64,000 nt of DNA, taken from assembly GCA_015062535.1 (NCBI GenBank), contig SUUK01000002.1, positions 250,493 to 314,492 of the forward strand, in the 5' to 3' direction. The position numbers and the translations under genes are program-made. Source of the DNA: Alphaproteobacteria bacterium (lineage in GTDB: Bacteria > Pseudomonadota > Alphaproteobacteria > RF32 > CAG-239). Positions 13,976-56,403 of the stretch are shown in pieces. Under the pieces are notes generated by a model, which saw only the letters and a list, made by a program, of their open reading frames with translations, was not told the DNA's origin and made no database searches. Numbering within the stretch: position 1 is the first letter of the stretch; every line of letters begins with the position of its first letter.

Positions 13976-14125
13976 TTGACTAAGGGGCAATTTTGTGATA
14001 TATTTATAGTGTTTACAAATTATTGTCTCTATAGATATGGATGTGTTCTTAAGGCTATTGCTTTAAGGGTTTGTCTTTGTTTGTGAGGTAATGTTTGTGG
14101 CCGTCAATAGGAAAATCTTGTTGAT
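13976..14125 (+). promoter_or_regulatory. Sigma70 promoter plus long-hairpin leader of the 528-aa orphan
   Basis: TTGACT-17-TATATT; interrupted stem 14014-14099; second stem GTCAATAGGA/TCTTGTTGAT at 14103-14125. Confidence 0.55.
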
Positions 14126-14159
14126 GTAAATTTTATTTATTTTTTAAATTTTTAAAATT

Positions 14160-15746
14160 ATGAAGAAAAACATTCTTCGCGACATGTTTGTCGTATTGGC
14201 GAAAGCCATCGCACCCAATTGGGTAATTACTAACAAAACAAAGAAGTCAAACCCTGATGCTACTGACTGGCTTCTGGGCTATGACAAGGAAATGGCCTAC
14301 ATTGACAAGTATCAGCCAACTCCATCAGAGATGAAGGAGCGACTTTGGTCTGACAGAACAAGGTTGGAGATCTTGAAGCAGGAGAATCATACTCTTGTCG
14401 CAGACTGGAAGAGAGATGAGGAGTTTATGCTTCTTGTTGAGCGGGCGGATAAGCTTGGGGCTGATGTATTTTTCGAAGCTATTAACGGCAAGACACCTAG
14501 TGTCAAGCTGCTGAAGGCTATGATAAAGGCAATGCCTCAGACCACATTGATGAAAGTGGCTGACGTTAAGCCTCAGGCCTTTAACGACATGCGAGTGCAT
14601 GAAGTTTTGGGCTATGATGAGCCGGTATTTCTCCTCGACTCAGCTGAGAAGCTTGAGAAGAACTGGGCTCTTGCAAAGAGGCTTGTGGAGTATAGACCCA
14701 AACTCTGGGCAAAAGGCTTCTTGGATATTATCCTAGGTGAGACATCAGGTGATTATCAATCACTTTACACATGGCTCTTTTATGAGTGCATGAAACGAGG
14801 TGAGAACATGGTCAATCATGTTGCTTATACGTATAGCAAATATCCTGTGTTGTATGCTTATTTGAGAAGAAGTATGCTTCATAAGGAGGATGTTGCGGAA
14901 TATGTAAAAGTGATGTTGCCAAAGCTGATGGACTCGCTTACAACCTTAACCCCTGTTGAGCTTTGGACAAGAGCTGAAAAGCAAGATGATGCAGTAGAGG
15001 CATACTACTGGTATACTATTGCTTTAGGTAGAATCCAAGGTGGTGGAACCTATCCGTTTATGATGGGAAACCTTGGGAACTTCAAATCTCGTTTGGAGGC
15101 TGTTGAGTTTGCCTTACTCGTTTCATATCTCAGTGAGAATGCATGCAGTATTCCTGATATTGAGGCTCTATTGAAAGAGACTAAGAAGGATACTGATATT
15201 GACATTCTACACGAAAGAATGTGGAGTATCTCAAAAGGCAATGCTTCAACTATTGAGGAGGTTGCTAAAAAGTACTTCCCGTTTGAGGATTGGAAAAACA
15301 AAGGTGCGATGTACCGAAACATGGTTGTTCATAATCTTATGACACCCGAAAGGTTGAATAAGATATCAGATACTGATGTTAGGGCTAAAGTCATCGAAAT
15401 GATGCAGACAAAGGCTCAAACTGAAGTGCTGAAAAGAAATGACCATAATGAGTGGATCGCTCTTTTCGATGAGGGTGGTAAACTTACTCCTGAGGCAGAA
15501 TGCACTATGCTTTCTTGCCACTTCTACAGAGGTGAGGATAAGAAGTATTATATCAAGAAATATAAATTGTCCGAGAGGGCTTTTCGATATCTTCTTGATA
15601 TGAAGCCTGCCTCTATGAGCGAGGGATTTTCGTACCTTCTTACCTATGCACAGGCATATGGTTTGACAGAGGAAGAGTATCTTCTCGTTTTGCAGAGCCA
15701 GTATTTTGACAAGGCTCACTTTATTGTGAAGTTTGTCAAAAAGTAA
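14160..15746 (+). CDS. Hypothetical protein, probably alpha-helical, atypical codon usage
   Basis: 528-aa ORF with no recognisable motif; AAG/GAG-rich; no SD upstream. Confidence 0.8.
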   Translation: MKKNILRDMFVVLAKAIAPNWVITNKTKKSNPDATDWLLGYDKEMAYIDKYQPTPSEMKERLWSDRTRLEILKQENHTLVADWKRDEEFMLLVERADKLGADVFFEAINGKTPSVKLLKAMIKAMPQTTLMKVADVKPQAFNDMRVHEVLGYDEPVFLLDSAEKLEKNWALAKRLVEYRPKLWAKGFLDIILGETSGDYQSLYTWLFYECMKRGENMVNHVAYTYSKYPVLYAYLRRSMLHKEDVAEYVKVMLPKLMDSLTTLTPVELWTRAEKQDDAVEAYYWYTIALGRIQGGGTYPFMMGNLGNFKSRLEAVEFALLVSYLSENACSIPDIEALLKETKKDTDIDILHERMWSISKGNASTIEEVAKKYFPFEDWKNKGAMYRNMVVHNLMTPERLNKISDTDVRAKVIEMMQTKAQTEVLKRNDHNEWIALFDEGGKLTPEAECTMLSCHFYRGEDKKYYIKKYKLSERAFRYLLDMKPASMSEGFSYLLTYAQAYGLTEEEYLLVLQSQYFDKAHFIVKFVKK

Positions 15747-15772
15747 TGAACCAAGCTTTAAGAACATTAATT

Positions 15773-15797
15773 AGGGTGGCATTTGCCACCCTTTTTT
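15773..15797. terminator. Intrinsic terminator between convergent genes
   Basis: AGGGTGGCA/TGCCACCCT plus T-run. Confidence 0.75.
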
Positions 15798-17208: not shown

Positions 17209-17312
17209 TCTGATATCTCGAAAATTTTTGTGGACTGAAAAAGTTGGCTTTATTATATTTAGGCTTAGGTTTAGATTTAGTTAATTTATAGAGCTTTTAT
17301 GGATAAAAGAAA

Positions 17313-20087: not shown

Positions 20088-20165
20088 ATTTTTTGATAAA
20101 TATAGATGTTGAAATAATTTAGTATTTGTGCTAGTATATCAGAATGTACTAGCAGGAGGTTGTGT

Positions 20166-32493: not shown

Positions 32494-32735
32494 TTTCTTG
32501 CTATCATGTTGAAAATGCTCAATTTAGGGTTGCTAATTTTAAATTAAAAAAATATTGACAAAAAATATTTTTTGTATATATTGAAGGTGTTAATATACAA
32601 TTATGGCTCTTATTTTCAATCAAATGCTCTTTTTCATAAAAGTTTTTTGTTTAGATGTTTTTTTATTAATTAATCAATGTATTGTCCTTTTGAGATGATA
32701 CAAATCAGAAGTTAAACCAGAAAAAGACAAAAGCT

Positions 32736-33029: not shown

Positions 33030-33157
33030 CCTATAAAATAGGCTGTTTACTTAGAACAGCCTAAAGTGCTTGCAAAATAAAAAATCTTTTGTTAGAAAAA
33101 ATTAAGAGGCGGTTGTAATGTGTGGGAGAAACCGCCTCTTAATCGTTTTAATTGAAA

Positions 33158-34878: not shown

Positions 34879-35025
34879 TAAAAAAAGGTATTTTTTTAAG
34901 AAACGCACTTTAGGAGTGCGTTTTTTTATGATATTTAGTAGATATTTGTGTGGATATTATACATTTGTTAAGAAAGATTGTTTTAGAATCGCTTGAAAGC
35001 AATTGTTTTTGAATGTGTAAAGACT

Positions 35026-38000: not shown

Positions 38001-40599
38001 TGTTACTAAAGAATATGGTAGATTGTTTTTAGTGGAAGGTAAAGGTAGTGAAGGCTATGTATTAGGTGAAGCTAATGTTTCTAATAAAGCAACAGGAATA
38101 GAAATTAAGAAAGGTGCTAATGGTGGCATAGAAACGTTAGGTGTAATTAATGTAAAAGATGAAACAGCTACAGGAATTGATGTTGTTGATAATGGTAGTA
38201 CTGCAAACGTAAATTCTGGTGGTTATCTTGATGTTAAGGATGGTATTGGAATTCAAGCAGATAGTCTAGCTATAGTAAATAATAATGGTGAAATATCTGT
38301 TGATTCTGGGGTTGGTATTATTAATGGAACTAAGGTAACAACAACTAATAATGGAGTAATAAATGTTAATAATGGTAGAGGAGCTATTTTGAATGGTGGA
38401 CAATTTACAAATAGCTCTACAGGAAACATAAGTATAAGCTCAGATACAGAATGGGATATTAATGGACATGGATTTAGTAATATAGATATGTTTAGTATAG
38501 GTGGAATTATTAATTCAGGTTACTTTACTAATAAGGGTAAAATAGTGGCTAATGATACGCAAAAGGCAAATATTGGTTTATATGTGAAGGGTAGTGGTAG
38601 TGTAGTTGAAAATAATGGTGATGTAAAGGGGGCTGCAATAGGGATTTATGCGGATGAAGGGTCTGAAGTAATTAATGATAAAAATATCAAATATAATAAG
38701 GTAGGTGTATATAATAAGAATGCAACTGTTGTAGGTGGTGGTACAGTCGAGGGTAATACGTATGGGTATTATTTGGATGGTGGTACATCTGATTTGACAA
38801 TAAATGGTGATGTTGAAGGTAATACTTATGGAGTATATGCAAAAGGAGGTAATATTACTTTAACGGGAACACTTTCAACAGGATCTACTGGAGCATATTT
38901 AGAGAATTCATCAACAATGACTAATGAATCTGGTAGTGTAATTGTTAGTGGGGGGGTAGGTGTAGATGTTGGAAGTGGAGGTGCTTTTTCTAATTATAGT
39001 GGAATTACTGTAAATAGTGGTACAGGTATAAATGTAAGAAAAGGTGGTTCTGCAGTTAATGGCTCGACAGGGGTAATTGATGTTGTAGGTGAAAGTGCTA
39101 TAGGAGTTAATGTTGAAAGCGGTGGTAGCTTTACTAATGGTGGTAAAATTAATTTTGATAGCAATAAAAATAGTTGTGTTATAGGTGGAAGTGATGCTGG
39201 GTGTGAAGATTCTGCTAAAGGTCTATCAAGTACAGTCGGTCAAAAAATAATTTCTTTAGAAGAAGGGGCTAGTTTTATAAATAAAGGTATAGTTGATTTT
39301 GATGAGGAAGAAATTGATTTTAATGAAATTGTGAATGCTGAAGATGCAAACATAGTGATTGCCAAAGGTGGTAGTTATCAAGCAGAGAGCTTTAAGGGTG
39401 ATGTTGTTGCAAGTAAAGATATTGTAGAAGGTGGTTTTGATGATACCTATACAAATAAAGACTCTTTTGTAGGTGAGAATAAGGGAATTAATGTAAAATC
39501 ACAATCTTATATGTTTGATGCAAAACTAAATAATGATGGGGATGTTGAGTTAAATCGTAAAAGCTTTGAGGAATTAGTTGAAGAAAAAGATTTAAGTGAA
39601 TTTTTTGAGATGAACTATAATTTAGCTCATAATGAAAAAATGTATAATAGCTTGAAATCAGCAGAAAACAAAGAAGAATTTGATGAGATTAAAGAAAGTG
39701 AATCAGGAAAGAAATTTTATGCAAACCTTCCTCGTGAGAATATGGCTGTTTTAAGAGGTTTGAGTTCTAATGAGCAAAAGAGAATTTTAGAAGATGGGAT
39801 TAAAGACGTTAGCATTGGAGCTAATTACTTTAGAACTGGAAAAGATGGTTTAGGTAATTTAAGTAGTTATGAAGATGATGTTTATAGTGCATATATTGGC
39901 TATGGTCATAAATTAAATAAAAATTGGAGTATGGGTGCAACTGTTATGGGGGCATACCAAGATAGTGCTTATGATGATATTGATTCAACAAAAGAAAATA
40001 AAATCTTGATGGCGTTTATGCCAATATTATATCAAAATAGTAGATTTAAATATCTTGCTATGCCAAATGTTGGTGTTGGCTTTGGAGAATATACTCGTCA
40101 TGCAAACTCTGGCAATTATGATGCAGATACATTTGATATCTATTATGGATTATCTAACACTATGGAATATAGTGTAGATATGAAAGTTGCAGAGCTTGTT
40201 GCAGAAGCAGAACTTAATTTGCAAGGTATACACTCAGATGATGCAAAAGAAAAGGGAGGTTTGGTATTAAAAGCAAATGATAGTGTGTCTTTAGAAGCTG
40301 GTGTTGGTTTGAAGGTTCGTAAAAACATTAGGCTTGCAAAAGAACGCTCTTTAATGCTTGCGGTTGGTGCTAAATATTATCATGAATTTTTAGACCCATA
40401 TAAGAAGCTTGATGTAACAATGAAGGGTAGTCCAGTTAGTTTTGATGCAGGCTATTATGAAGAAAATAAAAATCGCATTAAAACAACAGCAGAAGCCGTA
40501 TATAAAGATGGTGATTTAAGTGTTAGCGCAGAAATTTCTCATAACAACGAAAATAAGAGCAACGTTGAAGGTGGTGTTGGAGTGAGATATAATTTCTAA
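35026..40599 (+). CDS. Large autotransporter/adhesin with N-terminal ankyrin-like domain
   Basis: Signal peptide; ankyrin-like GLNIDSVNPNGDTGLCIAV; hydrophobic segment plus poly-Gly; many N-x-G-x-I passenger repeats; barrel-like C-terminus GVGVRYNF. Confidence 0.82.
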   Translation: MNVKVLKCLLAIFCGVLVPIRDGFAVTGRLRPQDFNKMYHLAALGKVGILRNAVNRGLNIDSVNPNGDTGLCIAVKRKNYVAYNSFRMSGANPRHQCTYRIYKEYQEFLDSTKTAREEKILGNKESLYYNEEERNWWPWILGGVALGGGALALSGGGGGGSHAPVVEEITPIETGTGLGGYVVNYKELISGQNGGNLLDITFENDGLTNPDKIRLLPNTLDMADYLKAYVKIEDGGNFDNWGTLSLGNGTIGMSAYDNGSRAENNGTIDIKAENGAIGMVASNGATAYNSPDLGEKDSGHGNINMSFKGDKEGDSLIGMYADTNSKIVNYGKITGTTSEVVDDKKNNGGNVTGILIGDKTTFAATTDDIIIDEGTGDEVAEEDEEEKTVSPNSGSMVGMGVFNFYSGTDLSKNIVSAENWGSINLSAGYNAATDVGVNLVGMGSYIDDKFLHENYNPSFAEQMKLYNNGNISLKYQGSYKISEGALKLGDGGLIGIRADASTEATNTGNISIDLTSTTLEEGIDVASGMLAVHGAELINGNKNSIYDGSTDVPSGSIIVYNDAKSGGISYGMLAAKGDGSQTRVYNWKDPKLANYGLIDMQVSNSYAMASFDGGEVTNYGVINLGVENGHSYYSNNYGMYSEGKDKADAAKLVNKGIINVNSELSVAMQQMFSGSVDMVNDGEIYLSSKATNSMAMGGSFSTATNNNKIYYEVDNSKSFIYPTDKSDKPDWNVQKDPVAASVKISTENGVTKQFFINDGEMTVGKKVIDENDYNGTFGTAAVHVSQQGGAINNGKILIKKADLTYRQLNVGMYLDSNSERTAYVRNKGDIIVDAFHSMGMLNKSSKSATAFNLGNISVASQRSHGMAGTAGSYLSNGSSDDKSANINVNGLDSVGMYLKDAEGFNWGNIYLSKEKTTAVLLDGSEAVYNEFGNIYHDTDDELKEMVYYGFTNDAEARFDYEGVTEIDGYILGKAFTDDAGGHVYWGEDSVANVTKEYGRLFLVEGKGSEGYVLGEANVSNKATGIEIKKGANGGIETLGVINVKDETATGIDVVDNGSTANVNSGGYLDVKDGIGIQADSLAIVNNNGEISVDSGVGIINGTKVTTTNNGVINVNNGRGAILNGGQFTNSSTGNISISSDTEWDINGHGFSNIDMFSIGGIINSGYFTNKGKIVANDTQKANIGLYVKGSGSVVENNGDVKGAAIGIYADEGSEVINDKNIKYNKVGVYNKNATVVGGGTVEGNTYGYYLDGGTSDLTINGDVEGNTYGVYAKGGNITLTGTLSTGSTGAYLENSSTMTNESGSVIVSGGVGVDVGSGGAFSNYSGITVNSGTGINVRKGGSAVNGSTGVIDVVGESAIGVNVESGGSFTNGGKINFDSNKNSCVIGGSDAGCEDSAKGLSSTVGQKIISLEEGASFINKGIVDFDEEEIDFNEIVNAEDANIVIAKGGSYQAESFKGDVVASKDIVEGGFDDTYTNKDSFVGENKGINVKSQSYMFDAKLNNDGDVELNRKSFEELVEEKDLSEFFEMNYNLAHNEKMYNSLKSAENKEEFDEIKESESGKKFYANLPRENMAVLRGLSSNEQKRILEDGIKDVSIGANYFRTGKDGLGNLSSYEDDVYSAYIGYGHKLNKNWSMGATVMGAYQDSAYDDIDSTKENKILMAFMPILYQNSRFKYLAMPNVGVGFGEYTRHANSGNYDADTFDIYYGLSNTMEYSVDMKVAELVAEAELNLQGIHSDDAKEKGGLVLKANDSVSLEAGVGLKVRKNIRLAKERSLMLAVGAKYYHEFLDPYKKLDVTMKGSPVSFDAGYYEENKNRIKTTAEAVYKDGDLSVSAEISHNNENKSNVEGGVGVRYNF

Positions 40600-43905: not shown

Positions 43906-43937
43906 AAAAAAAAGAGGAGTTTAACTCCTCTTTTTTT
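43906..43937. terminator. Bidirectional terminator
   Basis: A-run, GAGGAGT-TTA-ACTCCTC, T-run, between convergent genes. Confidence 0.8.
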
Positions 43938-45450
43938 AGTATGATTTGTTTATTAGCTCTAGTTCTTCTTTGGTCATAAGAACAGGATTTTTACCATGGT
44001 CTAAGCTATAACCTTTAATAGCTTTATCTTTATTAAACAATACTTTTGCCATTAATGTGCCATCTTTATTAAATGCATCTAGCATACCATGTTTTTTGCC
44101 TTTTTCATATGATACTTCACCCATTAATTTGCCAGTTGGATAGTAACGTTTTACTTTACCAGATTTGCGATTTCTTAAATAAGGGATTTCATATGATAGG
44201 TTGCCTTCGTTATCATAAATTAGTGTTAAACCATTTAAGATGCCTTTTTCATAAATAGCAGTTGATTTAATTTTGCCATCTTCAAAAAACTCTTTATATT
44301 CACCATCTAAAACGTCATCAACATATGTTTCTTCAGATAAAACAAAGCCATCTTTGGAATAATTTTTTTGGATGCCATTTTTTTTGCCATTTGTGTAATT
44401 TACTTCGGCAGTTAGCTTTCCTTCTTCATCATAAAATTTTGCAGGTCCTTCGGCTATGGCATTAACATATGTAATCTCACTTTTTAAGCCAGATGTTTCA
44501 TAGTAATCTCTTCCTAAACCATTGATGATGCCATTGATGTATGGTGTTTCAGTTTTGACTGTTCCTGTTTCATAATATTCAGTTTCTATGCCATTTTTCA
44601 TATCATTTGCATAGTTTGCAACTATCATTTTGGTTTGATTTGGGAAAAAGGCAATAGCTTCGCCTTCTCTTAAGTCATCTTTATAGGTAACTTTTAAGTT
44701 TAGTTCGCCGTTTTCTTTATAGAATGTTCCAACACCATTTATTAGGTCATTTTGGTAAGGTATTTCTGATTCTAAAACACCATCTTCATAGTAGTTGGTT
44801 GCAAGACCATTCTTTTTTCCTTGTGCATATTCTACTTTAGATTTTAAGTTGCCACTTTTGTAATAAATATAGCGCTCTCCGACAATGATGTCGTTTTCAT
44901 AATTTAATTGTTCTGCAATGTTTCCATCATAAAAATAAATAATTGAAGCACCATTTTTTTGATCATTTATATATCTTGTTTCTTCTTTTAAGTTCCCATC
45001 TTCAAAGTAAGTTTTTTTAGGACCATTTTGAACATTGGAACTATATGTGATACGTTCTTTAACATTTCCATTTTCAAAGAATATGCGTTTCTCGCCATCT
45101 ATAACACCGTTTTTAAATGGTGTTTTTTCTTTTAAGTTACCATTTGGATAGTAGGTTAGGGCAATACCTTCGGCTTTGCCATTAACGTATGGTAAGTCTG
45201 TGTCTTTGTGTCCTTCTGGGGCATAAAAAACAGCAACACCATTTAATATTCCATCTACATAAGATAGTTCACTTTTTTTGAAGTTGTTTTCATAAAAAGT
45301 CTCAAAAATGCCAGTTACAGGGTCACCATTAACATCATACAACACACCATTTACATTTCGGGTGTCTTCCATAGTGTATCTTGGTGTGGCGTTAGCATTT
45401 TCTATATTAATTATAAAGCCTAATAACAAATATAATGGAAAAAATTTCAT
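43936..45450 (-). CDS. Exported MORN-variant repeat protein (YwqK-like)
   Basis: Signal peptide then many ~24-aa repeats of type G-x-x-x-x-YY-x-NG-x-L-K-x-E-x-x-Y. Confidence 0.85.
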   Translation of the reverse strand: MKFFPLYLLLGFIINIENANATPRYTMEDTRNVNGVLYDVNGDPVTGIFETFYENNFKKSELSYVDGILNGVAVFYAPEGHKDTDLPYVNGKAEGIALTYYPNGNLKEKTPFKNGVIDGEKRIFFENGNVKERITYSSNVQNGPKKTYFEDGNLKEETRYINDQKNGASIIYFYDGNIAEQLNYENDIIVGERYIYYKSGNLKSKVEYAQGKKNGLATNYYEDGVLESEIPYQNDLINGVGTFYKENGELNLKVTYKDDLREGEAIAFFPNQTKMIVANYANDMKNGIETEYYETGTVKTETPYINGIINGLGRDYYETSGLKSEITYVNAIAEGPAKFYDEEGKLTAEVNYTNGKKNGIQKNYSKDGFVLSEETYVDDVLDGEYKEFFEDGKIKSTAIYEKGILNGLTLIYDNEGNLSYEIPYLRNRKSGKVKRYYPTGKLMGEVSYEKGKKHGMLDAFNKDGTLMAKVLFNKDKAIKGYSLDHGKNPVLMTKEELELINKSY

Positions 45451-45548
45451 TTTTACTTCCTTAAAAGATATATCTTTAAAGAGTTTAAACCATGTTTTGG
45501 TATATAATCAAGCAAAAATATATTTTTACCACACCATAAAAAATAAAT

Positions 45549-46274
45549 TTATTCTTGTTTTTCTAAATTGTTTTTTAGGTATATTAAAGAGAGTAAAAAT
45601 GCTAATAAAAATGTACTTAACTCGTTTATCTCTAGGTTAATTGTTTTTGCTATTAAAAGGTTTAATAGCTCTATAAAAGATATGCAAAGAGCAGATAATC
45701 TCATTAGTATTTCTTTATTAATTGGAGTTTTTCTTATTTTTAATATGAGTGAATTTAAGAAAGTTAGTATGAGACTTTTTAATAATAAAATTATAAAAAA
45801 TAAGCATATTGCGAGTAATGAAAAAGTTGATGTAGTAGATTGAATAGATTTATCTAAAAAGCTCTTGAAATAATTTATATCATAAGTGCCATCAGTATAT
45901 TCAAGTTTTTTGATATCCGAGGGGGAGGTGATATAAAAATATTTTTTGGTAATGATAATGGCTGTTTTTTCTTTAGTTAATTCTTCTGGTGAATTTTTAG
46001 TATCTAGGATAACTGGCAAAATAAAATTATCTTTATCGGTTATACCAAAATTTAGGTCTACTCTTTTGTATGTATCAGGGTGTGAAACTATTTCTTGGTT
46101 TTTTATTTCTATAGGAAGAAAATCTTCTGCGACAAGAAGAGCTTTGGGTTTTATATCATCTATTACTGTTTTTATGGAAAATAAAAATACGATAGTAATT
46201 ACTATAGCTGTTGCTAGTAAAAATAATAGACCATGACCTTTTCCTTGTTTTATGTATAAGAATATTTTTTCCAT
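45549..46274 (-). CDS. Membrane protein (DUF1189-like topology)
   Basis: One N-terminal TM, a soluble loop, three C-terminal TM segments. Confidence 0.6.
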   Translation of the reverse strand: MEKIFLYIKQGKGHGLLFLLATAIVITIVFLFSIKTVIDDIKPKALLVAEDFLPIEIKNQEIVSHPDTYKRVDLNFGITDKDNFILPVILDTKNSPEELTKEKTAIIITKKYFYITSPSDIKKLEYTDGTYDINYFKSFLDKSIQSTTSTFSLLAICLFFIILLLKSLILTFLNSLILKIRKTPINKEILMRLSALCISFIELLNLLIAKTINLEINELSTFLLAFLLSLIYLKNNLEKQE

Positions 46275-46288
46275 TTTTACCTCAAAAA

Positions 46289-49200
46289 TTAAAATTTATA
46301 TTGCATTCCGGCATCTATTGTTATTCCATCAATAGCGCCAAATTCTTTTTCAATATTTCCATATAAGGTTATATTTTCATAATTATATGTTGCATTTAGG
46401 GATAAAACACCTCGATTAGAGTTTTGTTTTTTGATAATATCAAAGTTGTTATTCATTGCAACTATTGAACCTTTTAAGGCTTTATCAGGTTCTAAAAACT
46501 CAACATAATATATTCCGCCAATTTTTAATTTTAATGATTTATCTTTATCAAAAGAAAACTCTTTGGTTAAATATGAGCCAAGTCCTAGTTCTAGTGATGT
46601 GGCATTGTTCGATTTTATGTTAAGTGCATTTTCTTTATTTTTTTCTGAAATATCTTCTTGATAGTAGTTAATTAGGTTTAGTTCTGCAAGTGGCTCAAAT
46701 TTTAGGGAGTTTGCAAGGTTTAGTGTATAACGAACTTCGTTATTTAATCCAAATTGATATTCGTTATAATCAGCAGAATTTTCACCGGTTAGTGTTTTTC
46801 TATCATATGAGTTGTCATTGTATCCGGCATGTAGTTTTGAATACCACTTTAAGCCGTTATTAAAGTCATAACCAAATGGCAACCACAAGCCAAATTGATT
46901 GGATTTGCGTTTAGAATGGTCATCATAATCTGTTTTTAATTGACTGATTGATGCACCCAAACCATAAGTTATGCCAGAAGTTGTTTTATTTTTTAATAAA
47001 CCATAAGCGCTATGTGCGGTTCCTTTACTTTCTTCTAATGATTTATCAGAATCGTTTGAAATATCTATGAACTTATAACCTGCAACATAGTTTTTGTTTG
47101 GTTCATTAAATAGGATATCACTAAACTGGCGATTTAGGTTTTGGTGAACAATTTGGTTTTCTCTTCTAAATGATGGGAGAATGTTGTTTCCAGTTAAAGT
47201 ATCTATTTTTTTGTTTAAGCTAGATGAAGTTGAAGCTGTTTTTAAGTTATTGTAAAGTGCTAGATTTTTCTTTTCTTCGTAGTTTTGTTCTAAGAAGTTT
47301 GCAACACTTTTATTTGTTATTAGGTCATTAAAGTTTTGACGAGTTAAAACAACATCATGATTTTGGCTATCTTTTGAAACCAAAGATGCATTAAACATTG
47401 CTGATTTTGACTTTAAGTTTAGCTCAGATAAGTCGTTTGCTTTAAGTGAGTTAGAAAGAGTATGGTTATTTTCAAAATTGTCCATGAGAGGGGAATTTGT
47501 GACAGATAAATCTCCTTTTATCGTGTCGCCAAAGAATTTACCAGTTGCTCCAAGTATTACCTCACCTTTACCCATATCATTAAAGTTTGTAACAGATTGA
47601 GGAGTGCGAGAGCCATAGATATCTATCATATCACCTGTTTCGGATTCTTTTTCTTCTCCATTAAATGTGATTGTACCTGTATTTTCTAGGGTAGCATCAT
47701 CTTCTAAGTATATACCTTTTCCAGAGCTTGCATTTGTTATGGTTATTGTTCCGCTATTTTTTACACTAGCACCATTTTCGGCATATATACCATAGGCTGT
47801 TCCGCCAATTTCTGATGATGGAGTAAGTGTTTCGTTTGTTTTTTCGTCTTTATATTCTTGGCGATAGATATTTATTTGACCGCTATTTTCTATTTTTGAA
47901 AATGCTTCTCCGTAAATACCAACAGCTGTACCATTTCCTAAGTTGTTTATGTTTATAATTCCGCTATTGGTGATTTTGTTAAATCTTCCACCACGAAGTC
48001 CTGTTGTTATGCCATCTCCAGTATTTATTAGGTTTATAGTAGATTGTACACCGGTTTTGCCTAAGGTTTCGTGAGCATAACCTTCTTCGGTGATGTTAGC
48101 AATAACTCCATTGGCATCTTCTTCTGGCATATACATACCATATACATCACCATTGCCTTGATTTATAATACTGATTGTACCAACGGCTTTTCCTGTGGGA
48201 TGTCCTTCTTCAGTTTTTCCGCCATAGTGCAGTCCATTCCATAATTGTTGACCTCCGTACATACCATAAACATTTCCGGTGCCTTTATTTCTTATTGTTA
48301 TATTACCCTCTACGTAATCTCCGCCACCTGATGCAGCATTGATGGCAAACCATTGTTGAGCATTGCTTTCAACATCCTTGATATCTTTTTGAATATTTAT
48401 TCCATAGATATTTCCGTTACCTTTAGAATCTATGTTAATATTAGCAATAGCTTCACGTCCTAAGTAGAATTGGTGAGATGTTGCATTCATTGCTGCCATA
48501 TAGCCACCAATACCATATATATCGCCATATGATTCGATATTTATGTCACCATAGGATTTTCCACCGGTTATGGCGATAGCATTGTAGGCTCTGTCATCTC
48601 CAAAAATACCATAGGTTTTACCAGTTCCTTTATTTGTTATATTTATTTGACCATGAGCAATACCACCATCTGAACCTTCTGAATTTACAGCTTCCCATGA
48701 ATTTTGTGCATCTAAAATTTTTGAATATATACCATATACTTCACCATTTTTTTGGTGAGTAATATTTATAATGCCTGTTGCTTCAGAGATGGGGTTTATT
48801 TCATCTTCATAGCGTTTTCCGTCAACAAGAGCATTTGTTACATGACGTTCGCCGTACATACCTATGGTTTTTCCGTTTCCGGAATTGTTTAAATTAATTT
48901 CTTGATAGTCATCAGGGTGTACATATACAGAATATAGGTTATATACGTCTTGGTCTGTTGAATATACACCATAGAGGTCTTCGTCACCAGTGTTTTCTTT
49001 TTCTGTATTACCAACGGCTACACAAATGTTGTTTGATTGCTCAAATCCCTCTGGGCATTCAATTATTAGTATGCAGACATTATCTTGTAAGAAATAGCCG
49101 TCATTACATTCTGTACATACATTTGCTGTTGGGCTGTATGCAATACAATTTGGAACATGAGAATGTGGTAAGCATTCTTTTAGTAGAGTTTCTCCTGATA

Positions 49201-50482
49201 AGCAGGTATTTCCTGTTTCGTATTGATTTTCGTTACATAAAGTTAAATAGTTTGAACCACAATCTGTTGGCTGGCATTCATCATCTTTGGTTATTGTATA
49301 ACCTTCATCACAAGTATTTAATAAGCACTCATTACCAACTAGAGCATAATTTTCATTACATTCAGAACAAGTATTAGATGTAGGGCTATATGTTTTGCAG
49401 TTTGGAACATCTGTATGGGGTAAACATTCTTTTAGTAAAGTTTCACCAGATAAACAAGTATTTCCTGTTTCATATTGGTTTTCGTTGCAAGAACTTAAAT
49501 AATTTTCACCACAAATGGTTATTTCGCAAGTATTTCCAGTTAATGTATAACCATCATTACATATTGCGCATGCATCTTCTAATGGACTATATGTTTTGCA
49601 GTTTGGAACATCTGTATGGGGTAAACATTCTTTTAATAAATTATTTCCAGATAAACAAGTATTTCCTGTTTCGTATTGATTTTCGTTGCAGGAACTTAAA
49701 TAATTTTCACCACAAACGTTTGGTTCACAAGTGCTTCCAACTAATGTAAATCCCTCATCACAGATGATTGGTTTACACTCATTTCCGACAAGCTCTTCAC
49801 CCTCTGGGCAAACGATTGGTTTACATTCGTTTCCAACAAGCTCTTCACCTTCAGGGCAAACGATTGGTTTACACTCGTTTCCAACAAGCTCTTCACCATC
49901 TGGGCAGATGATTGGTTTACAAATTCCATCTACACGTTCTTGTCCTTCTGGGCAATCTATTTGTTCGCATTTGCCATTTACAAGTTCTTCTCCGTCAGGG
50001 CAAGTAATTGGATTTTTATTATTAGAATCATTAGATGATGAGCCTCCACCACCTCCGCCTCCGCCGGCAAGGGCTGCGATACCTGCAACTGCTAAACCTG
50101 AAGCAATATAAATCCCCGTATTGCTGTCATCGGAAGACTTATAAATACTTTCTTTTTTAGTGGTAGATTTTTGAGTTGTTAGTTTTTGGTTTTTAAATTT
50201 TTTTGTGCAAGGGTGGTTTGTTTTTGCACCAAGAGATTTTATTTTACGATATGCAAAAATGTCATTTTTTGATATAGCAATGCATAGTGCAGAATTGCCT
50301 TCTTTATCAACCGAATCGAGATTATAACCACGATATAAATATTTATGTATGGTTTGGATATCACCTGTTCTTGCTTTGTGATATACAAATTCTGCAAATG
50401 ATATAGCTTTTGCGTTTTCTATATTTAAGAAAAAGCTAAATAAAATAAGGCTTATTGATAAAATATATTTTTTAATAATCAT
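46289..50482 (-). CDS. Large autotransporter/adhesin with ankyrin-like N-terminus and Cys-rich repeats
   Basis: Signal peptide; GYNLDSVDKEGNSALCIAI; IASGLAVAGIAALAGGGGGGGG; Cys repeats; YGIY passenger repeats; barrel end DAGMQYKF. Confidence 0.82.
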   Translation of the reverse strand: MIIKKYILSISLILFSFFLNIENAKAISFAEFVYHKARTGDIQTIHKYLYRGYNLDSVDKEGNSALCIAISKNDIFAYRKIKSLGAKTNHPCTKKFKNQKLTTQKSTTKKESIYKSSDDSNTGIYIASGLAVAGIAALAGGGGGGGGSSSNDSNNKNPITCPDGEELVNGKCEQIDCPEGQERVDGICKPIICPDGEELVGNECKPIVCPEGEELVGNECKPIVCPEGEELVGNECKPIICDEGFTLVGSTCEPNVCGENYLSSCNENQYETGNTCLSGNNLLKECLPHTDVPNCKTYSPLEDACAICNDGYTLTGNTCEITICGENYLSSCNENQYETGNTCLSGETLLKECLPHTDVPNCKTYSPTSNTCSECNENYALVGNECLLNTCDEGYTITKDDECQPTDCGSNYLTLCNENQYETGNTCLSGETLLKECLPHSHVPNCIAYSPTANVCTECNDGYFLQDNVCILIIECPEGFEQSNNICVAVGNTEKENTGDEDLYGVYSTDQDVYNLYSVYVHPDDYQEINLNNSGNGKTIGMYGERHVTNALVDGKRYEDEINPISEATGIINITHQKNGEVYGIYSKILDAQNSWEAVNSEGSDGGIAHGQINITNKGTGKTYGIFGDDRAYNAIAITGGKSYGDINIESYGDIYGIGGYMAAMNATSHQFYLGREAIANINIDSKGNGNIYGINIQKDIKDVESNAQQWFAINAASGGGDYVEGNITIRNKGTGNVYGMYGGQQLWNGLHYGGKTEEGHPTGKAVGTISIINQGNGDVYGMYMPEEDANGVIANITEEGYAHETLGKTGVQSTINLINTGDGITTGLRGGRFNKITNSGIININNLGNGTAVGIYGEAFSKIENSGQINIYRQEYKDEKTNETLTPSSEIGGTAYGIYAENGASVKNSGTITITNASSGKGIYLEDDATLENTGTITFNGEEKESETGDMIDIYGSRTPQSVTNFNDMGKGEVILGATGKFFGDTIKGDLSVTNSPLMDNFENNHTLSNSLKANDLSELNLKSKSAMFNASLVSKDSQNHDVVLTRQNFNDLITNKSVANFLEQNYEEKKNLALYNNLKTASTSSSLNKKIDTLTGNNILPSFRRENQIVHQNLNRQFSDILFNEPNKNYVAGYKFIDISNDSDKSLEESKGTAHSAYGLLKNKTTSGITYGLGASISQLKTDYDDHSKRKSNQFGLWLPFGYDFNNGLKWYSKLHAGYNDNSYDRKTLTGENSADYNEYQFGLNNEVRYTLNLANSLKFEPLAELNLINYYQEDISEKNKENALNIKSNNATSLELGLGSYLTKEFSFDKDKSLKLKIGGIYYVEFLEPDKALKGSIVAMNNNFDIIKKQNSNRGVLSLNATYNYENITLYGNIEKEFGAIDGITIDAGMQYKF
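49061..50002 (-). repeat. Intragenic Cys-rich repeats: six 48-bp units (49715-50002) and three ~201-bp units (49061-49714)
   Basis: CPEGEELVGNECKPIV-type unit x6; 67-aa CGENYLSSCNENQYETGNTCLSG...C unit x3, conserved at DNA level. Confidence 0.93.
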
Positions 50483-50572
50483 AATAAATTCTCTTTAAGT
50501 GCACTAATTTAGTTTATTGTACATATGAAGTATTAAAAAATTATTTAGAGAAATAAAAAATGATACTTTAAT

Positions 50573-50602
50573 AAAAAAAAGAGGAACCAAAATGGTTCCT
50601 CT
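50573..50602 (-). terminator. Intrinsic terminator of the SPFH gene
   Basis: AGAGGAACCA/TGGTTCCTCT stem with a T-run on the - strand. Confidence 0.8.
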
Positions 50603-50620
50603 AAAAACGGCTGAGAGAAG

Positions 50621-52078
50621 TTACTTCTCCTCGTTTTTTGTGAGCTTGCTAAGAAGCTGTTGTCCGGCTTCAGTGCCTGCAAAAGCCTCGAGCATTGAGC
50701 CGAGAGCCTGACCACCCTTGGCAGTGAACAAGTCCATTACGGAGTTGACACCTTCGGGGATGCTTGAACCAGCGTTAGCGATAATCTTGATTTGAGCTGT
50801 GCCCAAGTTCTTAGCCTGCTCTACGCCGACAGCCTGAGAAGCCTCGACCTTCTTGATCTCGATGAGGTACTTCTGGTAACCCTCGTTCTCGCCGATCTCT
50901 TTTGCAAGAGTAATCTGCGGCTGAACTTCTGCAAGACCGGTCTTTTCCTTGGCGGTTGCTTCTGCAAGACCCTTGACCTCGATAGCCTTAGCGATGTTCT
51001 GCTCTCTTACGAGTTCTGCTTCAGCCTCTTTGGTCTTCTGGATGTAGAGTGCGTCAGCCTCGTGAGTTGCAGCATCCTTCTGTCTTTCGGCTACATCAAC
51101 CTTGGCATCAGCCTCAATCTTCTGGCGCTCACGAGATGCGTTAGCCTCGATAACGGTGCGCTCTTTTTCGATGTCAGCTTTCTTGACAGTTTCAACCTGA
51201 AGAACGGCCATTTGCTTTTCCTTGGTTGTTTTGGCCTGCTCCTGGATATCCTGCTGAGCTTTCTCCTGAGCGATACCTACCGATTTCTCACGTTCTGCGC
51301 GACGCTTACCGACGGTTTCCTGTTTTTCCTCTTCCTTCATCGCGATGGACTGCTCGGCAGCAATCTCTGCTTCTCTTGCCTCCTTGTTGTTTTTGGCAAC
51401 CTCTCTACGGCTTTCCATGTCGATGAAAGACTTCTTCTTCTCCATGATGTTCGAGATAACCTTCTCGTCTTCCTTGTCACGAACGTCCATGAGCTCGATA
51501 GACTTTACAGGAACGACACCCCACTCTTTGAGGTTGTCAGATACTTCCTTTGTGAACTCCTCACCATAGCGTGAGCGCTGAATCATGATTTCATCCAGCG
51601 TATCGTTTGCAAGGATTGAACGAACGGAAGACTGAACAATCTTGGTAAGATGCTCTTCAAGTGTCGAATTGTCTTCGATACGAGAAGCAGCCTGCTTGTA
51701 GTCTGCGATACGGAAGAACGCTGTTACGTCTACAACGAACGGAAGTTTGTCCTTATCGTATGCCTCATAGCCTTCAAGGTCTACAGAGAAGTTGTGAAGC
51801 GGAAGAACCTGAACCTCAACACCCCAGATTGGTACCCAAGTTGGAATGTGGTAGTATACGTTGCCAGATGAATCATCACCTCCAGCAACTTCACCGGTGG
51901 CGGCGTTGGTAACGGGCTTTACGTTTCCATATATCTCGGTTTGCTTGGAGCGTCGAACAACATGAACCTCAGAAGGTTTCACAACGCGGCGCTTCGAGAG
52001 AAGCCAAGAGATGAACCAGAATACGAGTACAGCAACAACGGCAATAGCCGAAATCAAAATAATAGTTTTTGTTTCCAT
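50621..52078 (-). CDS. SPFH/Band 7 flotillin-like membrane protein, atypical GC and codon usage
   Basis: N-terminal TM; AYDKDKLPFVVDVTAFFRI SPFH region; long Ala/Glu-rich coiled coil. Confidence 0.85.
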   Translation of the reverse strand: METKTIILISAIAVVAVLVFWFISWLLSKRRVVKPSEVHVVRRSKQTEIYGNVKPVTNAATGEVAGGDDSSGNVYYHIPTWVPIWGVEVQVLPLHNFSVDLEGYEAYDKDKLPFVVDVTAFFRIADYKQAASRIEDNSTLEEHLTKIVQSSVRSILANDTLDEIMIQRSRYGEEFTKEVSDNLKEWGVVPVKSIELMDVRDKEDEKVISNIMEKKKSFIDMESRREVAKNNKEAREAEIAAEQSIAMKEEEKQETVGKRRAEREKSVGIAQEKAQQDIQEQAKTTKEKQMAVLQVETVKKADIEKERTVIEANASRERQKIEADAKVDVAERQKDAATHEADALYIQKTKEAEAELVREQNIAKAIEVKGLAEATAKEKTGLAEVQPQITLAKEIGENEGYQKYLIEIKKVEASQAVGVEQAKNLGTAQIKIIANAGSSIPEGVNSVMDLFTAKGGQALGSMLEAFAGTEAGQQLLSKLTKNEEK

Positions 52079-52198
52079 TTTTTAACAAAATTTTTAATTA
52101 ATAATATAAGTTATCGGAAAGGTATATATCATAGTTTAAGAGTTTTGTCAATATGTCTAAACGAAAAAATTAAAAAAAAATTATTTTTTTTTGATTTT

Positions 52199-52231
52199 GC
52201 TATTGCAGGGGAAAAAAATGCTCCCTATATA
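52199..52231 (+). promoter_or_regulatory. Putative RpoH (sigma32) promoter of dnaK
   Basis: GCTATTG-N17-CCCTATATA, close to the alphaproteobacterial RpoH consensus. Confidence 0.65.
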
Positions 52232-52281
52232 AGGTGATAGAAAATGATTTTTTTATAACTTAAATATAAGGAATATTTAAT

Positions 52282-54204: not shown

Positions 54205-54311
54205 AATTTAAGTGTCTAATCGTGAATGGATGTCCCTCGTTGGTCAGGTTATGTAGATTTTACTACACTTACTTACTCGGGGGACATTTACTTCTATCTA
54301 TCTTAAATTTT
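54203..54311. repeat. Second member of the small inverted-repeat element family found after ugd
   Basis: Ends AAAATTTAAGTGTCTA and TCTATCTATCTTAAATTTT match the 42402/42511 ends; shared CATTTACTTCT; nested internal hairpin. Confidence 0.7.
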
Positions 54312-54402
54312 TAGAGGGGAAATATTGTGTCCCCCTTTTTTGTTTGCATAAAATGTTTTTTTAGTTTATGAGTTTGTGTAGACTAATTTTATGAGGTGAG
54401 TT

Positions 54403-54882
54403 ATGGAAAAAATTGCAAGTTTTATGGTTAATCATTTAAATTTATTGCCGGGGGTTTATGTTTCTAGAATTGATGATTTTGATGGTAAGTTTATTACAAC
54501 TTTTGATATTCGTATGACAAGACCAAATTTTGAGCCAGTGATGAATACTGCAGAAATTCATACTATTGAGCATCTTGGAGCTACATTCATGCGTAATCAT
54601 AAAGATTATGCAAAAAAAACAGTATATTTTGGACCTATGGGATGTAGAACAGGTTTTTATTTGCTTTTAGAGGGTAAATATAGTTCAAAAGAAGTAGTGC
54701 CATTGATGAAGGAAATGTTTGATTTTATTCGTAAATTTGAAGGTGAAGTTCCAGGGGCTGTTGCTCGTGATTGTGGTAATTATTTGGATATGAACCTTAA
54801 TATGGCAAAGTATCTTGCTAATAAATATTATGAAGAAGTGCTAGAAAATATTACAATTGAGCGATTAGAATATCAAGATTAA
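54403..54882 (+). CDS. luxS: S-ribosylhomocysteine lyase LuxS
   Basis: HTIEHL, GPMGCRTGFY, CGNY. Confidence 0.96.
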   Translation: MEKIASFMVNHLNLLPGVYVSRIDDFDGKFITTFDIRMTRPNFEPVMNTAEIHTIEHLGATFMRNHKDYAKKTVYFGPMGCRTGFYLLLEGKYSSKEVVPLMKEMFDFIRKFEGEVPGAVARDCGNYLDMNLNMAKYLANKYYEEVLENITIERLEYQD

Positions 54883-54887
54883 GACAT

Positions 54888-54916
54888 AAAAAAAGCGTCC
54901 CCTTGAGAGGGACGCT
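54888..54916. terminator. Terminator between convergent luxS and lipoprotein genes
   Basis: AGCGTCCC/GGGACGCT stem with an A-run upstream. Confidence 0.75.
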
Positions 54917-54939
54917 AATTTTTTTGGGACTTCTTAGCA

Positions 54940-56160
54940 TTATTCGTGCTGAAGAAGGGTGGTTCTTCCTGTGCCTTCAGTGAACTTAACACCGTTGCAG
55001 TATCCCTCAACAGAGAGTACGCGGGTGCCAAGATAACCTTCAGTTGAAACTTGCTCGTTTACAACCTCGTTCTTAACCACCTTTAATTCAGGGGTAAAGT
55101 TGAAGTGATACTCGCAATTTTCGTCCTTGTAGGTAACCTTCATGCCGTAAAGCATGAGGAGGTCAGTGTGACCGACTTCAAGTCCGTTATGGTTCCAATC
55201 GGCTCTGAAGTTGTTCTCCTGGGATGTTGAAATCCAAGAGAAAGCACCGCTTGCACCACTTTCTTCCATAACCTCACCTTTGGTGTAGGTATTAGAAGAC
55301 ATTTCGGAATTGAAAACCTTCAAGGTTTCGTCACCCGGAAGGCCCATCTCAGCAACGGTTAAGGTCTTTTGAGCTATCTTAACAGTGTCAGCAGGCTGTA
55401 AAGCCTTTGGTGTCACCTTATATACGATGAACTTGCATTTCATCGCGTTGTTCTTTACTGTGACAATAGTGTCACAGAAGAAATAAGGATCCTCCACCAC
55501 AGAGATTTCAGGCTGAGGGATTTCCTGATAATAATAAGGTGCCACCATAATGGTGTCTCGCTTATAACTATCAGTGGTACCGACAACTGAATAACTAACC
55601 TCATAGTTGAGGGTTACTCGGTTAAGGCGGTCATTATTCTCAACAGCTGAGAGTTCAGCATTTTTGAAAACAATGTTGTTGATTTCTACGTGAGCGCAAT
55701 CGTCGATTGACTCATCATAGTTTTCAACAAAACCATATACCCACTCTGCCTTAATTTCTGCAGACTGGCCGTCTGAGAAAGCGTCGTTTCCGGTCATGGA
55801 ATAACTCTTGTTAACTCCATTCCAATCCTTGAGCTCAGCATCACTGAGGTTCGAAGTCTTGATGCTAGGTGTTGAAAACTCCTCTACATCGACAGTGTCG
55901 AGAAGAAGAGAAATTTCAGCTTTAGCACTCACTTCAAACTTCTGGTTTTCTGCACCCACAGATGTGGTGGCGTTTCCAGACAACTTAGCTGTTGCAAAAC
56001 CCATCTCGTTCTTATAACTTACGTTATAAGACAGATTCTTGTTTGCAACGGGGTTGTAGTTTTCGAGGACGTCTTCACCTGAGCATGAGCTCATGAGGAA
56101 CATTACAACCATTCCCATTACACATGCCAAAAGGCTTGTGTTGTTTGTTCTTTTTGCCAT
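54940..56160 (-). CDS. Hypothetical lipoprotein, atypical codon usage
   Basis: Signal peptide with MSSC lipobox followed by acidic SGEDVLE; beta-rich; no SD. Confidence 0.78.
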   Translation of the reverse strand: MAKRTNNTSLLACVMGMVVMFLMSSCSGEDVLENYNPVANKNLSYNVSYKNEMGFATAKLSGNATTSVGAENQKFEVSAKAEISLLLDTVDVEEFSTPSIKTSNLSDAELKDWNGVNKSYSMTGNDAFSDGQSAEIKAEWVYGFVENYDESIDDCAHVEINNIVFKNAELSAVENNDRLNRVTLNYEVSYSVVGTTDSYKRDTIMVAPYYYQEIPQPEISVVEDPYFFCDTIVTVKNNAMKCKFIVYKVTPKALQPADTVKIAQKTLTVAEMGLPGDETLKVFNSEMSSNTYTKGEVMEESGASGAFSWISTSQENNFRADWNHNGLEVGHTDLLMLYGMKVTYKDENCEYHFNFTPELKVVKNEVVNEQVSTEGYLGTRVLSVEGYCNGVKFTEGTGRTTLLQHE

Positions 56161-56176
56161 ATTGATTTGGTTTTAT

Positions 56177-56403
56177 GCCAGGGCTTAAGGGGAAAGATGA
56201 CCTTCCTTAAACTACCTGGCTGGTTAATAAATAAATTAATTAATTCAAAGAAAAAAAATAGGTACTTTTCTTTTGATATCAATTAATTTTAAGCCTGAAA
56301 CTTAAAACAATATGACAACAAAAAGAAGAATAATTTACTTAAAAATTATACATAATACCTACTTTGACAAAAGTATAATAGCATATTTTTTAAGGCATTG
56401 CAA
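56177..56403 (-). promoter_or_regulatory. Sigma70 promoter plus long-hairpin leader of the orphan lipoprotein
   Basis: TTGCAA-17-TATTAT on - strand; interrupted stem 56245-56367; second stem 56177-56220. Confidence 0.55.

Follow-up and report, generated by a model that had tools for sequence, protein, structure and literature searches.

In a window of 64,000 nucleotides (nt), the whole stretch analysed, from the uncultured gut alphaproteobacterium of assembly GCA_015062535.1 (contig SUUK01000002.1; C10:250493-314492), four dispersed genes encode a predicted alpha-solenoid protein, a small hydrophobic protein, a flotillin-type protein and a lipoprotein (genes 1-4; Table 1). We hold it to be very probable that these four are members of a gene class native to this uncultured alphaproteobacterial genus of the gut and inherited vertically within it, a class marked by start sites that lack a Shine-Dalgarno (SD) sequence and by raised G+C (GC) content at third codon positions (GC3). 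The synonymous GC enrichment of the class persists across species, and its GC3 appears to be actively maintained. The complete account, which joins a vertical class, SD-independent initiation and actively maintained GC3, is the one towards which we lean, if only slightly.

A dispersed class of SD-less genes with raised GC3

The assembly comprises 1.73 Mb in 15 contigs at 32% GC, and its closest related loci come from uncultured gut and rumen Alphaproteobacteria. The window contains the S10-spc ribosomal-protein operon, mutS, groEL, greA, a sodB-like gene, dnaK and luxS, as well as ftsH, an adhE-like gene, an ABC exporter and an autotransporter; a Pfam family was assigned to 26 of the 32 window neighbours scanned. 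All four open reading frames (ORFs) reported by a first-pass annotation, made from the letters of the window, are present, with genes 3 and 4 on the minus strand (strand had not been given). They stand apart from their neighbours in composition, with GC3 values of 0.461, 0.367, 0.533 and 0.474 for genes 1-4 against 0.131-0.309 in the other 49 listed window ORFs. An SD is likewise absent from each, the duplex energies with the 16S tail being +1.8, -1.5, +1.0 and -1.5 kcal/mol; the 30 nt before the four ATGs are A/T-rich without a GGAG-type site, and sites of this type precede most window neighbours, including nearly every ribosomal-protein gene. The single 16S gene carries CCUCC at its 3' end (...GGAUCACCUCCUUUC), so the anti-SD is intact. 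The four sigma70-like promoters named in the annotation were all located in the sequence.

For the genome-wide comparison, 1598 gene models were taken from a custom ORF caller, the starts of which are approximate. Across these models GC3 had a median of 0.212 and a tail to about 0.6. The 86 ORFs with GC3 of at least 0.36 split three ways, into spurious frames (the ribosomal RNA operon and similar), a block on C14 and 34 dispersed genes; the last of these, at this threshold, constitute the class, and 600 genes with an upstream spacer of at least 100 nt served as the bulk comparison set. The class proved strongly SD-depleted, with an SD at the first start of 2/34 class genes versus 271/600 bulk genes (Fisher p = 1.2e-6), which extends the contrast claimed for the window to the genome. 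An SD stands before the first start in 646/1402 bulk genes and before at least one candidate start in 938/1402. Among stand-alone genes, median GC3 was 0.251 for SD-less and 0.202 for SD-led genes (p = 6e-13), and in the intermediate GC3 bin of 0.30-0.36 an SD was found in 13/73. If this bin is a mix of two populations, we infer that it holds about 50 further class genes, giving about 85 in all. The C14 block, at about 420-472 kb (~50 kb), has GC3 values of 0.36-0.54 and SDs in 13/22, and its amino-acid composition differs from that of the dispersed class (second-position GC, GC2, 0.396; CCG 0.44).

Members of the class have promoter and leader features in common, as the annotation had suggested for the genes of the window. 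Singleton units account for 28/34 class genes versus 404/1373 in the bulk; near-consensus promoters were found for 15/28 versus 179/600 (p = 0.011), and the promoter element TTGACAAA for 8/28 versus 22/600. The leaders share a motif of roughly ATTAT(G/T)nTTAAC, for which a Gibbs model held 6 bits over 12 positions and about 20/34 leaders had a good copy; the heptamer TTATGTT occurs in 8/34 class leaders versus 23/1411, a 14-fold enrichment. Where a promoter could be called, the motif began a median of 19.5 nt after the -10 element (range about 17-20), staying promoter-proximal in long leaders. Its orientation is constant, and tandem copies occur in some leaders. The last 30 bases of class leaders are 15-19% GC. 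No gapped 4-mer pair reached 8 occurrences in the class leaders. The preference for AAG and GAG described for the long genes of the window holds for the class as a whole (AAG 0.48 versus 0.18; GAG 0.47 versus 0.20).

Other features that had been ascribed to all or most of the four genes apply to some of them. The leaders of genes 1 and 4 are structured and those of genes 2 and 3 are not, and with two of four genes a structured leader is not a class feature. Hairpins after the stop codon are terminator-like for genes 1, 3 and 4, and that of gene 2 lacks a T tail on the strand of the gene. The sequence ATTAATTAA does occur in three leaders; as a specific signal it was rejected, since its 7 window matches compare with 5.05 +/- 2.76 expected and 27/100 shuffles reach 7. 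It is a variant of the broader leader motif.

Of 28 class proteins scanned, four had a Pfam family: adenylate kinase, an M16 peptidase and two SPFH/flotillin proteins. A CoaD-HD fusion, identified from sequence, also belongs to the class, and further members include lipoproteins, a four-gene outer-membrane family, small membrane proteins and a paralogous family of helical-repeat proteins.

Vertical descent and apparent maintenance of the synonymous shift

The first-pass annotation had proposed a second gene population, each member of which was acquired singly as a self-contained expression cassette, possibly through a dedicated capture route. Self-contained units of promoter, SD-less leader, ORF and terminator with a codon dialect of their own are indeed what was found; the gene-by-gene acquisition has to be given up. 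Three of the four genes show syntenic vertical inheritance, the gene families are clade-limited with no foreign source among their relatives, and the genes lie at the same site in close relatives, with no empty sites in the relatives examined. The gene 1 family was found in 21/24 same-genus genomes and in 0/16 sampled genomes of other families, with the same neighbours (an HD-domain gene upstream) in most of 19 relatives' loci. Flotillin orthologs of 65-90% identity were found in 20 related loci and adjoin dnaK in 16 of them; about 18/20 have a TTGACAAA-type promoter (often tandem) and an SD-less, motif-bearing leader, two loci not being readable in this respect as the start call was off. The gene 4 family is present in 11/35 genus genomes and syntenic in four relatives, and gene 2 gave a single partial match (1/35 genus genomes).

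The compositional shift is confined to synonymous sites. GC at first and second codon positions is 0.456/0.314 in the class versus 0.435/0.319 in the bulk, amino-acid usage is host-like, and NNC and AAG/GAG/CAG codons are raised two- to five-fold; NCG, CTG, CGG and GGG codons are as rare in the class as in the bulk, in which the C14 block differs. Synonymous divergence (dS) to the nearest species was 0.29, 0.50 and 0.90 for genes 1, 3 and 4, with nine neighbours at 0.07-0.74; nonsynonymous divergence (dN) of the same three genes is raised, at 0.054-0.126. Class proteins evolve fast, with a median identity to the second species described below of 46% versus 77%.

Had each gene arrived recently and singly as an expression cassette from a foreign source, Bacteroidota or some other donor lacking SDs, one would understand why the atypical GC3 stops exactly at the ORF borders, why promoter, ORF and terminator form an autonomous layout, why so few class proteins have a Pfam family (4/28), and why the lipoprotein and gene 2 occur in only 11/35 and 1/35 genus genomes. 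The class is nevertheless not foreign, because its amino acids are host-like, it is syntenic across species with conserved promoters and leaders, its families are limited to one clade, its dS resembles that of neighbours and its GC3 does not decay towards the host value; CpG codons are avoided as in the host, and the promoters are of the host sigma70 type. The scan of 32 window neighbours gave no integrase or transposase domain, though it did not extend to direct repeats at the gene borders. We therefore consider foreign cassettes highly improbable. Integron gene cassettes were set aside for genes that each have their own promoter and stand solitary among housekeeping genes, although no search was aimed at attC or intI, and copies of one mobile element were dismissed as a source of the shared upstream regions, in which, judged by eye, only motifs recur. 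A Bacteroidota origin of gene 4, hinted at by the lipoprotein signal ...SSCSGED, was likewise dropped: going by the records, not one of its 36 relatives is from beyond the clade.

Native descent leaves the origin of the raised GC3 to be considered, for which cross-species work covered one extra species, a second AT-rich congener (443 kb compared; bulk orthologs 77% identical), and three gene neighbourhoods. Ortholog GC3 correlates with that of the congener (Spearman rho 0.66, n = 311), and 11/11 class genes with an ortholog there have GC3 values of 0.30-0.57 in the congener versus a genome median of 0.235. The congener's own high-GC3 set has an SD in 4/36 versus 164/348 and the same promoter and leader layout. 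When target GC3 was regressed on neighbour GC3 over related loci, the slope and intercept were 0.27 and 0.34 for the flotillin (n = 20) and 0.35 and 0.33 for gene 1 (n = 15); relative to neighbours, targets stood at +0.21 in AT-rich backgrounds (about +0.2 in all 16 examined) and at -0.01 in GC-rich ones. For the flotillin, synonymous changes polarised in the two closest lineages ran at 0.073-0.107 per site from AT to GC versus 0.033-0.065 from GC to AT. The implied equilibrium GC3 is 0.54-0.75, versus 0.18-0.30 for dnaK and 0.22 for luxS, both of them adjacent genes only some hundreds of bases off. A ramp of GC3 behind the start codon was looked for and rejected, GC3 being flat from codon 1 to the stop; with an AT-rich leader in front, the GC step thus coincides with the ORF borders. 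In the related loci, GC3 of neighbouring genes spans about 0.18-0.56 within the genus and wider clade, an unusually wide range for close relatives with genomes of 1.3-2.0 Mb.

That range supplies GC-richer donors within the genus for a process of GC-biased gene conversion, or of repeated replacement by GC-richer congener alleles, at recombination hot spots such as might follow from diversifying selection on surface or effector proteins. The fast evolution of class genes and the GC-favouring substitutions of the flotillin would suit it. Conversion tracts should not respect ORF borders, however, and the GC step at start and stop codons, next to leaders that are the most AT-rich DNA nearby, speaks against it. 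NCG, CTG and GGG codons are not raised, and identity of class genes drops with that of their neighbours, and faster, unlike the outcome of recent exchange. We regard gene conversion as improbable.

The choice of codons was also compared with that of highly expressed genes. At 4-fold sites GC is 0.324 in the class, 0.157 in the bulk and 0.24-0.31 in intergenic DNA. In class versus ribosomal-protein genes, GCC reaches 0.22 versus 0.04, ACC 0.33 versus 0.05 and GTC 0.18 versus 0.02; ribosomal-protein genes share only the 2-fold NNC preference, so the class is not on the usual highly-expressed optimum. Single-copy tRNAs with CUU, CUC and CUG anticodons are kept, which makes AAG, GAG and CAG directly decodable.

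Transcription was considered through assemblies of gut RNA libraries, the contigs of which give neither starts, strand nor level, and in which uncovered parts carry no meaning. Seven RNA runs contained 5-14% of the sequence words, and four of them were aligned. Metatranscriptome contigs 90-96% identical to the flotillin gene (one of 1349 nt covers 50646-51982) and to parts of the lipoprotein gene were found, a weak hint that both are transcribed.

A neutral baseline would read these data differently: the class would consist of weakly selected, poorly translated, lineage-specific genes near mutational equilibrium, with the bulk pushed lower by selection for A/U-ending codons. The closeness of class 4-fold GC to intergenic GC agrees with this, as do the groEL, dnaK and ribosomal-protein genes, which shun C/G-ending 4-fold codons even more than the bulk, the fast protein evolution, the lack of a Pfam family in most class proteins, and the absence of SDs, which would suit low translation. 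The 2-fold pyrimidine sites run the other way. AAC stands at 0.49 in ribosomal-protein genes versus 0.25 in the bulk, and class NNC values are as high or higher (0.39-0.56); with NNC raised in both, one selection gradient cannot place the class at neutrality. Class promoters are moreover nearer to consensus than those of the bulk, leaders are conserved, adenylate kinase, CoaD, the M16 peptidase and flotillins are among the members, and the flotillin and lipoprotein genes appear in the RNA-library assemblies when most neighbouring sequence does not (again a weak hint). A neutral origin of the GC3 is accordingly held to be rather unlikely.

A candidate start-site signal and its parallels

Each class member is predicted to form its own transcription unit, made up of a near-consensus sigma70 promoter, often TTGACAAA; the ATTAT(G/T)nTTAAC motif in the leader about 17-20 nt after the -10 element; a very AU-rich, G-poor, SD-less stretch before the AUG; one ORF; and a terminator. 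Synonymous sites of the class are held at a GC3 of about 0.35-0.55 whatever the genome background. On class mRNAs, initiation would be SD-independent and of the type that relies on ribosomal protein S1 or an open leader, beside the SD-dependent bulk. Selection would keep the GC3 floor: without an SD, the start would be marked by an open, AU-rich leader against a more structured body, and sparsely initiated mRNAs would need the protection that the floor gives. A separate, SD-independent translation route, which the first-pass annotation had floated, is plausible for the class. The specific link, in which it is the GC3 floor that sets off the AU-rich leader as the place to start, is put forward tentatively and falls short of an even bet.

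In folding calculations the start window is more open than internal AUG windows by 3.63 kcal/mol in the class versus 1.59 kcal/mol in the SD-led bulk, and in 13/27 class genes versus 28/150 bulk genes no AUG is more open than the start. An ordinary coding sequence (CDS) in a genome of 32% GC would give little contrast, which may be the reason that the class is conspicuous in AT-rich members of the genus only. On a wider and more doubtful reading, two translation-initiation regimes would coexist in one bacterium, and for genes of the SD-less kind the start signal would include synonymous choices along the entire CDS, a selected GC3 floor leaving the AU-rich leader as the sole open place for ribosomes to land. 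Initiation mode, and neither expression level nor origin, would then set the codon dialect, stably over the genus with its backgrounds of about 0.2-0.55 GC3, a proposition that we also think doubtful.

The motif may instead, or also, be a regulator site. In the strict form of this alternative, one regulator would control all class genes together through the promoter-proximal motif, as its operator or 5'-RNA site, and SD absence and GC3 would have separate causes. Its fixed place 17-20 nt after the -10 element, kept promoter-proximal even in the long leaders of genes 1 and 4, its constant orientation and occasional tandem copies, and its conservation in orthologs would all fit. Against this stand the low information of the motif (6 bits over 12 positions), set as it is in very AT-rich DNA, and its good copies in no more than about 20/34 class leaders; the putative regulator is without a candidate, and the GC3 floor is left unexplained. 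A CtrA box (TTAA-N7-TTAA) was tried and rejected, with 0/30 class leaders versus 33/776 in the bulk. One regulator as the whole explanation is therefore unlikely in our judgement.

Several observations weigh against the account of maintained GC3 and SD-independent initiation. The folding contrast follows arithmetically from the GC enrichment and is not independent evidence. Promoters, leaders and SD-independent initiation are predictions from sequence, and SD frequencies are approximate, as gene models and start codons come from the custom ORF caller. Some SD-less, motif-bearing genes have GC3 values of 0.19-0.23, which means that the leader type does not require raised GC3. The motif keeps its distance from the promoter, not from the AUG, and would suit a regulator or a 5'-end element no less than a translation signal. 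In three to four related loci flotillin GC3 is equal to or below that of its neighbours, and the polarised changes are few (7-35 per class), were counted by parsimony and come from one gene. The nearness of class 4-fold GC to intergenic GC leaves room for a near-neutral reading, though 2-fold sites are not explained by it. The RNA-library contigs show only that the flotillin gene and part of the lipoprotein gene occur in gut metatranscriptome assemblies.

The class resembles several known arrangements in part. Phage morons are autonomous promoter-ORF-terminator units of deviant composition; class genes are likewise single ORFs with their own sigma70 promoter and terminator and a composition unlike that of their neighbours, but they are chromosomal, lie among housekeeping genes and outside prophage, have host-like amino acids and are vertical and syntenic across the genus. 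Horizontally acquired 'alien' genes are recognised by codon usage and ameliorate over time. The class shares with them its outlying GC3 and codon usage, and differs in its lack of amelioration and of foreign relatives, in the absence of empty sites from the relatives examined and in a shift restricted to synonymous positions. AU-rich translational enhancers are known, for example the 'epsilon' element of phage T7 gene 10, UUAACUUUA; the U/A-rich leader element of the class, with UUAAC upstream of the start, is like it in sequence only, and unlike it is anchored to the promoter. As in riboswitch or attenuator leaders, the 5' untranslated region (UTR) of gene 1 is conserved and covarying and ends in a terminator-like hairpin and U tract; unlike them it has no Rfam family, is single-copy per genome, is limited to one genus and forms a rod-like hairpin, not a multi-helix aptamer. 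A parallel in initiation is the start-selection model outlined for Bacteroidetes, in which S1 acts on an unstructured, low-GC 5' UTR set against a structured coding region (Accetto and Avgustin 2011, PMC3155529). As in that outline, the class is SD-less despite an intact 16S anti-SD, GC drops sharply just before its starts, and the start is more open than internal AUGs. Here, by contrast, a minority class alone is concerned, and the genome-wide absence of SDs does not apply, bulk genes having clear SDs; the class coding regions are also compositionally apart from the rest, and a specific promoter-proximal motif is common to the class. Full-text literature searches listed no paper linking SD absence to raised GC3 within one genome, nor, by their listings, one on codon usage in this gut lineage.

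A gene with deviant codons is routinely taken to have come by horizontal transfer, and this reading fails here for a whole gene class, the deviation being confined to synonymous sites, inherited over long divergence and apparently actively maintained. If the link to SD-less starts is true, the initiation mechanism would shape codon usage within a genome, SD-dependent and SD-independent mRNAs would be found side by side in a natural system, and caution would be called for when composition is used to call genes foreign in bacteria that are AT-rich, uncultured and host-associated. Membership of the class also ties together, as a co-organised set, at least 30 or so fast-evolving and uncharacterised proteins from an abundant lineage of the gut, including helical-repeat proteins, lipoproteins and outer-membrane proteins, to which gene 1 adds an uncatalogued, putatively structured leader RNA.

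The individual genes, the gene 1 leader RNA and their surroundings

Table 1. Predicted features of genes 1-4 in the window, and positions of helical-repeat paralogs (contig:position; aa, amino acids)
Feature	Position	Strand	Remarks
Gene 1 promoter, TTGACT-17-TATATT, TG upstream of -10	13976..14004	+	10/12 matches; kept in 17 genus leaders
Gene 1 leader, long imperfect 5' hairpin	14014..14099	+	base helix GUUUAC.../...GUGRGC
Gene 1 leader, second hairpin, then U-rich tract	14102..14126	+	loop GGRAAAAUCUU conserved; terminator-like
Gene 1 CDS, P0001	14160..15746	+	528 aa; GC3 0.46; fast-evolving, predicted all-alpha solenoid; clade-limited family
Terminator after gene 1, bidirectional	15773..15792	+	common to convergent histidine-kinase gene
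Gene 2 promoter, TTGACA-16-TATATT	32555..32582	+	11/12 matches; kept in nearest species
Gene 2 leader, long, AT-rich, SD-less, with TTATTAATTAA	32589..32735	+	not detectably structured, z = +0.19
Gene 2 CDS, P0002	32736..33029	+	97 aa; GC3 0.37; small hydrophobic protein
Hairpin after gene 2	33039..33063	+	without T tail here; T tail present in nearest species
Terminator after gene 3	50580..50602	-	terminator-like hairpin
Gene 3 CDS, P0003	50621..52078	-	485 aa; GC3 0.53; SPFH/flotillin-type membrane protein, Band_7 1.8e-16
Gene 3 leader, about 38 nt, SD-less, motif AUUAUUAAUUAA	52079..52116	-	unstructured, -0.2 kcal/mol
Gene 3 promoter, TTGACA-17-TATATA	52123..52151	-	read from sequence
Terminator after gene 4, bidirectional	54894..54916	-	common to luxS
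Gene 4 CDS, P0004	54940..56160	-	406 aa; GC3 0.47; lipoprotein; signal peptide with ...MSSC
Gene 4 leader hairpin	56177..56220	-	-21.3 kcal/mol, z = -3.05
Gene 4 second promoter candidate, TTGATA-16-TATTTT	56255..56282	-	9/12 matches
Gene 4 promoter candidate, TTGCAA-17-TATTAT	56375..56403	-	9/12 matches
Helical-repeat paralogs	C10:321974, C14:330669, C14:333804, C14:537924, C12:11228, C9:21763, C9:23941

Judged by predicted folding and covariation, the gene 1 leader is a genus-specific, uncatalogued structured RNA. Its structured part of about 115 nt consists of a hairpin of about 85 nt and a second, terminator-like hairpin, and folds at -41.9 kcal/mol (z = -6.6). The same architecture was found in 14/14 species, with z between -4.4 and -7.3 in 13 of them and -1.2 in one. 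Compensatory changes occur in the base helix, and double changes at 7/17 consensus pairs of the leader; in the second hairpin five stem pairs keep pairing with both sides changed in 1-5 of the 14 sequences (at least 4 at three pairs). This second hairpin may possibly act as an attenuator. The class motif, as AUUAUUGUCUC, lies in the 5' arm of the first hairpin at about 14020-14030. A covariance model of the leader, R1, found exactly one copy per genome in 8/8 genus genomes and no copy in 93 genomes from 22 further genera of the same family, and two R1 copies lie in genomes where the protein search for gene 1 was weak or empty. No Rfam family matched at gathering score in the window, and at E <= 10 the region 13900-14260 gave only a chance-level Lnt match on the opposite strand.

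The gene 1 protein had no Pfam or NCBIfam family match and a protein atlas score below 0.8. Beyond the nearest species identity is only 22-31%, and a large database search returned relatives in 121 representative clusters among 1.84 billion, of clade type. Its AlphaFold2 (AF2) model consists entirely of helices at a predicted local distance difference test (pLDDT) score of 84. Foldseek against the PDB gave only weak ARM/HEAT-like rows (best E = 1.6e-3; template modelling (TM) score about 0.16-0.25), from which a function was not taken; on its model, P0001 is predicted to be an alpha-solenoid only. Gene 2 keeps its promoter, leader, start and ends in the nearest species, around an internal deletion of about 136 nt.

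The gene 3 promoter was not passed by the promoter scan, as its hexamer ends in A. Adjoining the flotillin gene, at 43936-50482 of the window, are genes for a MORN-repeat protein and a 1397-aa autotransporter, and these two together with P0001 suggest a host-associated lifestyle. In one related record (L002) dnaK is split into two ORFs (3884-5173 and 5186-5800), through a frameshift or an assembly error. The gene 4 protein had no Pfam or NCBIfam family match, and its relatives number 36 proteins among 5.8 billion, at 40-92% identity. A motif copy, UUUAUUUAUUAACC, precedes its leader hairpin at about 56222-56235; in the leaders of relatives a hairpin of different sequence is kept at the same place, judged by eye.

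Elsewhere in the genome, the helical-repeat paralogs of Table 1 have recurring aromatic 'YY' motifs and GC3 values of 0.31-0.45, with the leader motif in several. Four outer-membrane-type paralogs stand in tandem at C10:28855-33014 (GC3 0.32-0.46), two of them with near-identical 140-nt upstream regions and signal peptides. The S10-spc operon (window 3285-13956) ends at L15, followed by a GNAT acetyltransferase gene and an HD-domain gene where secY-adk might be expected; the gene for adenylate kinase, an enzyme with a Cys4 lid here, lies at C10:129028-129681 and is itself an SD-less, high-GC3 class member. At 34993-40599 the window holds an ORF of 1868 aa with no Pfam family, a host-like GC3 of 0.16 and a very strong G-over-C skew. 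The genome has 41 tRNA genes, and despite the bulk GC3 of 0.21 single-copy tRNAs are kept for AAG, GAG, CAG, CUG and CCG, with dedicated single-copy tRNAs also for UCG, ACG, CGG, AGG and GGG.

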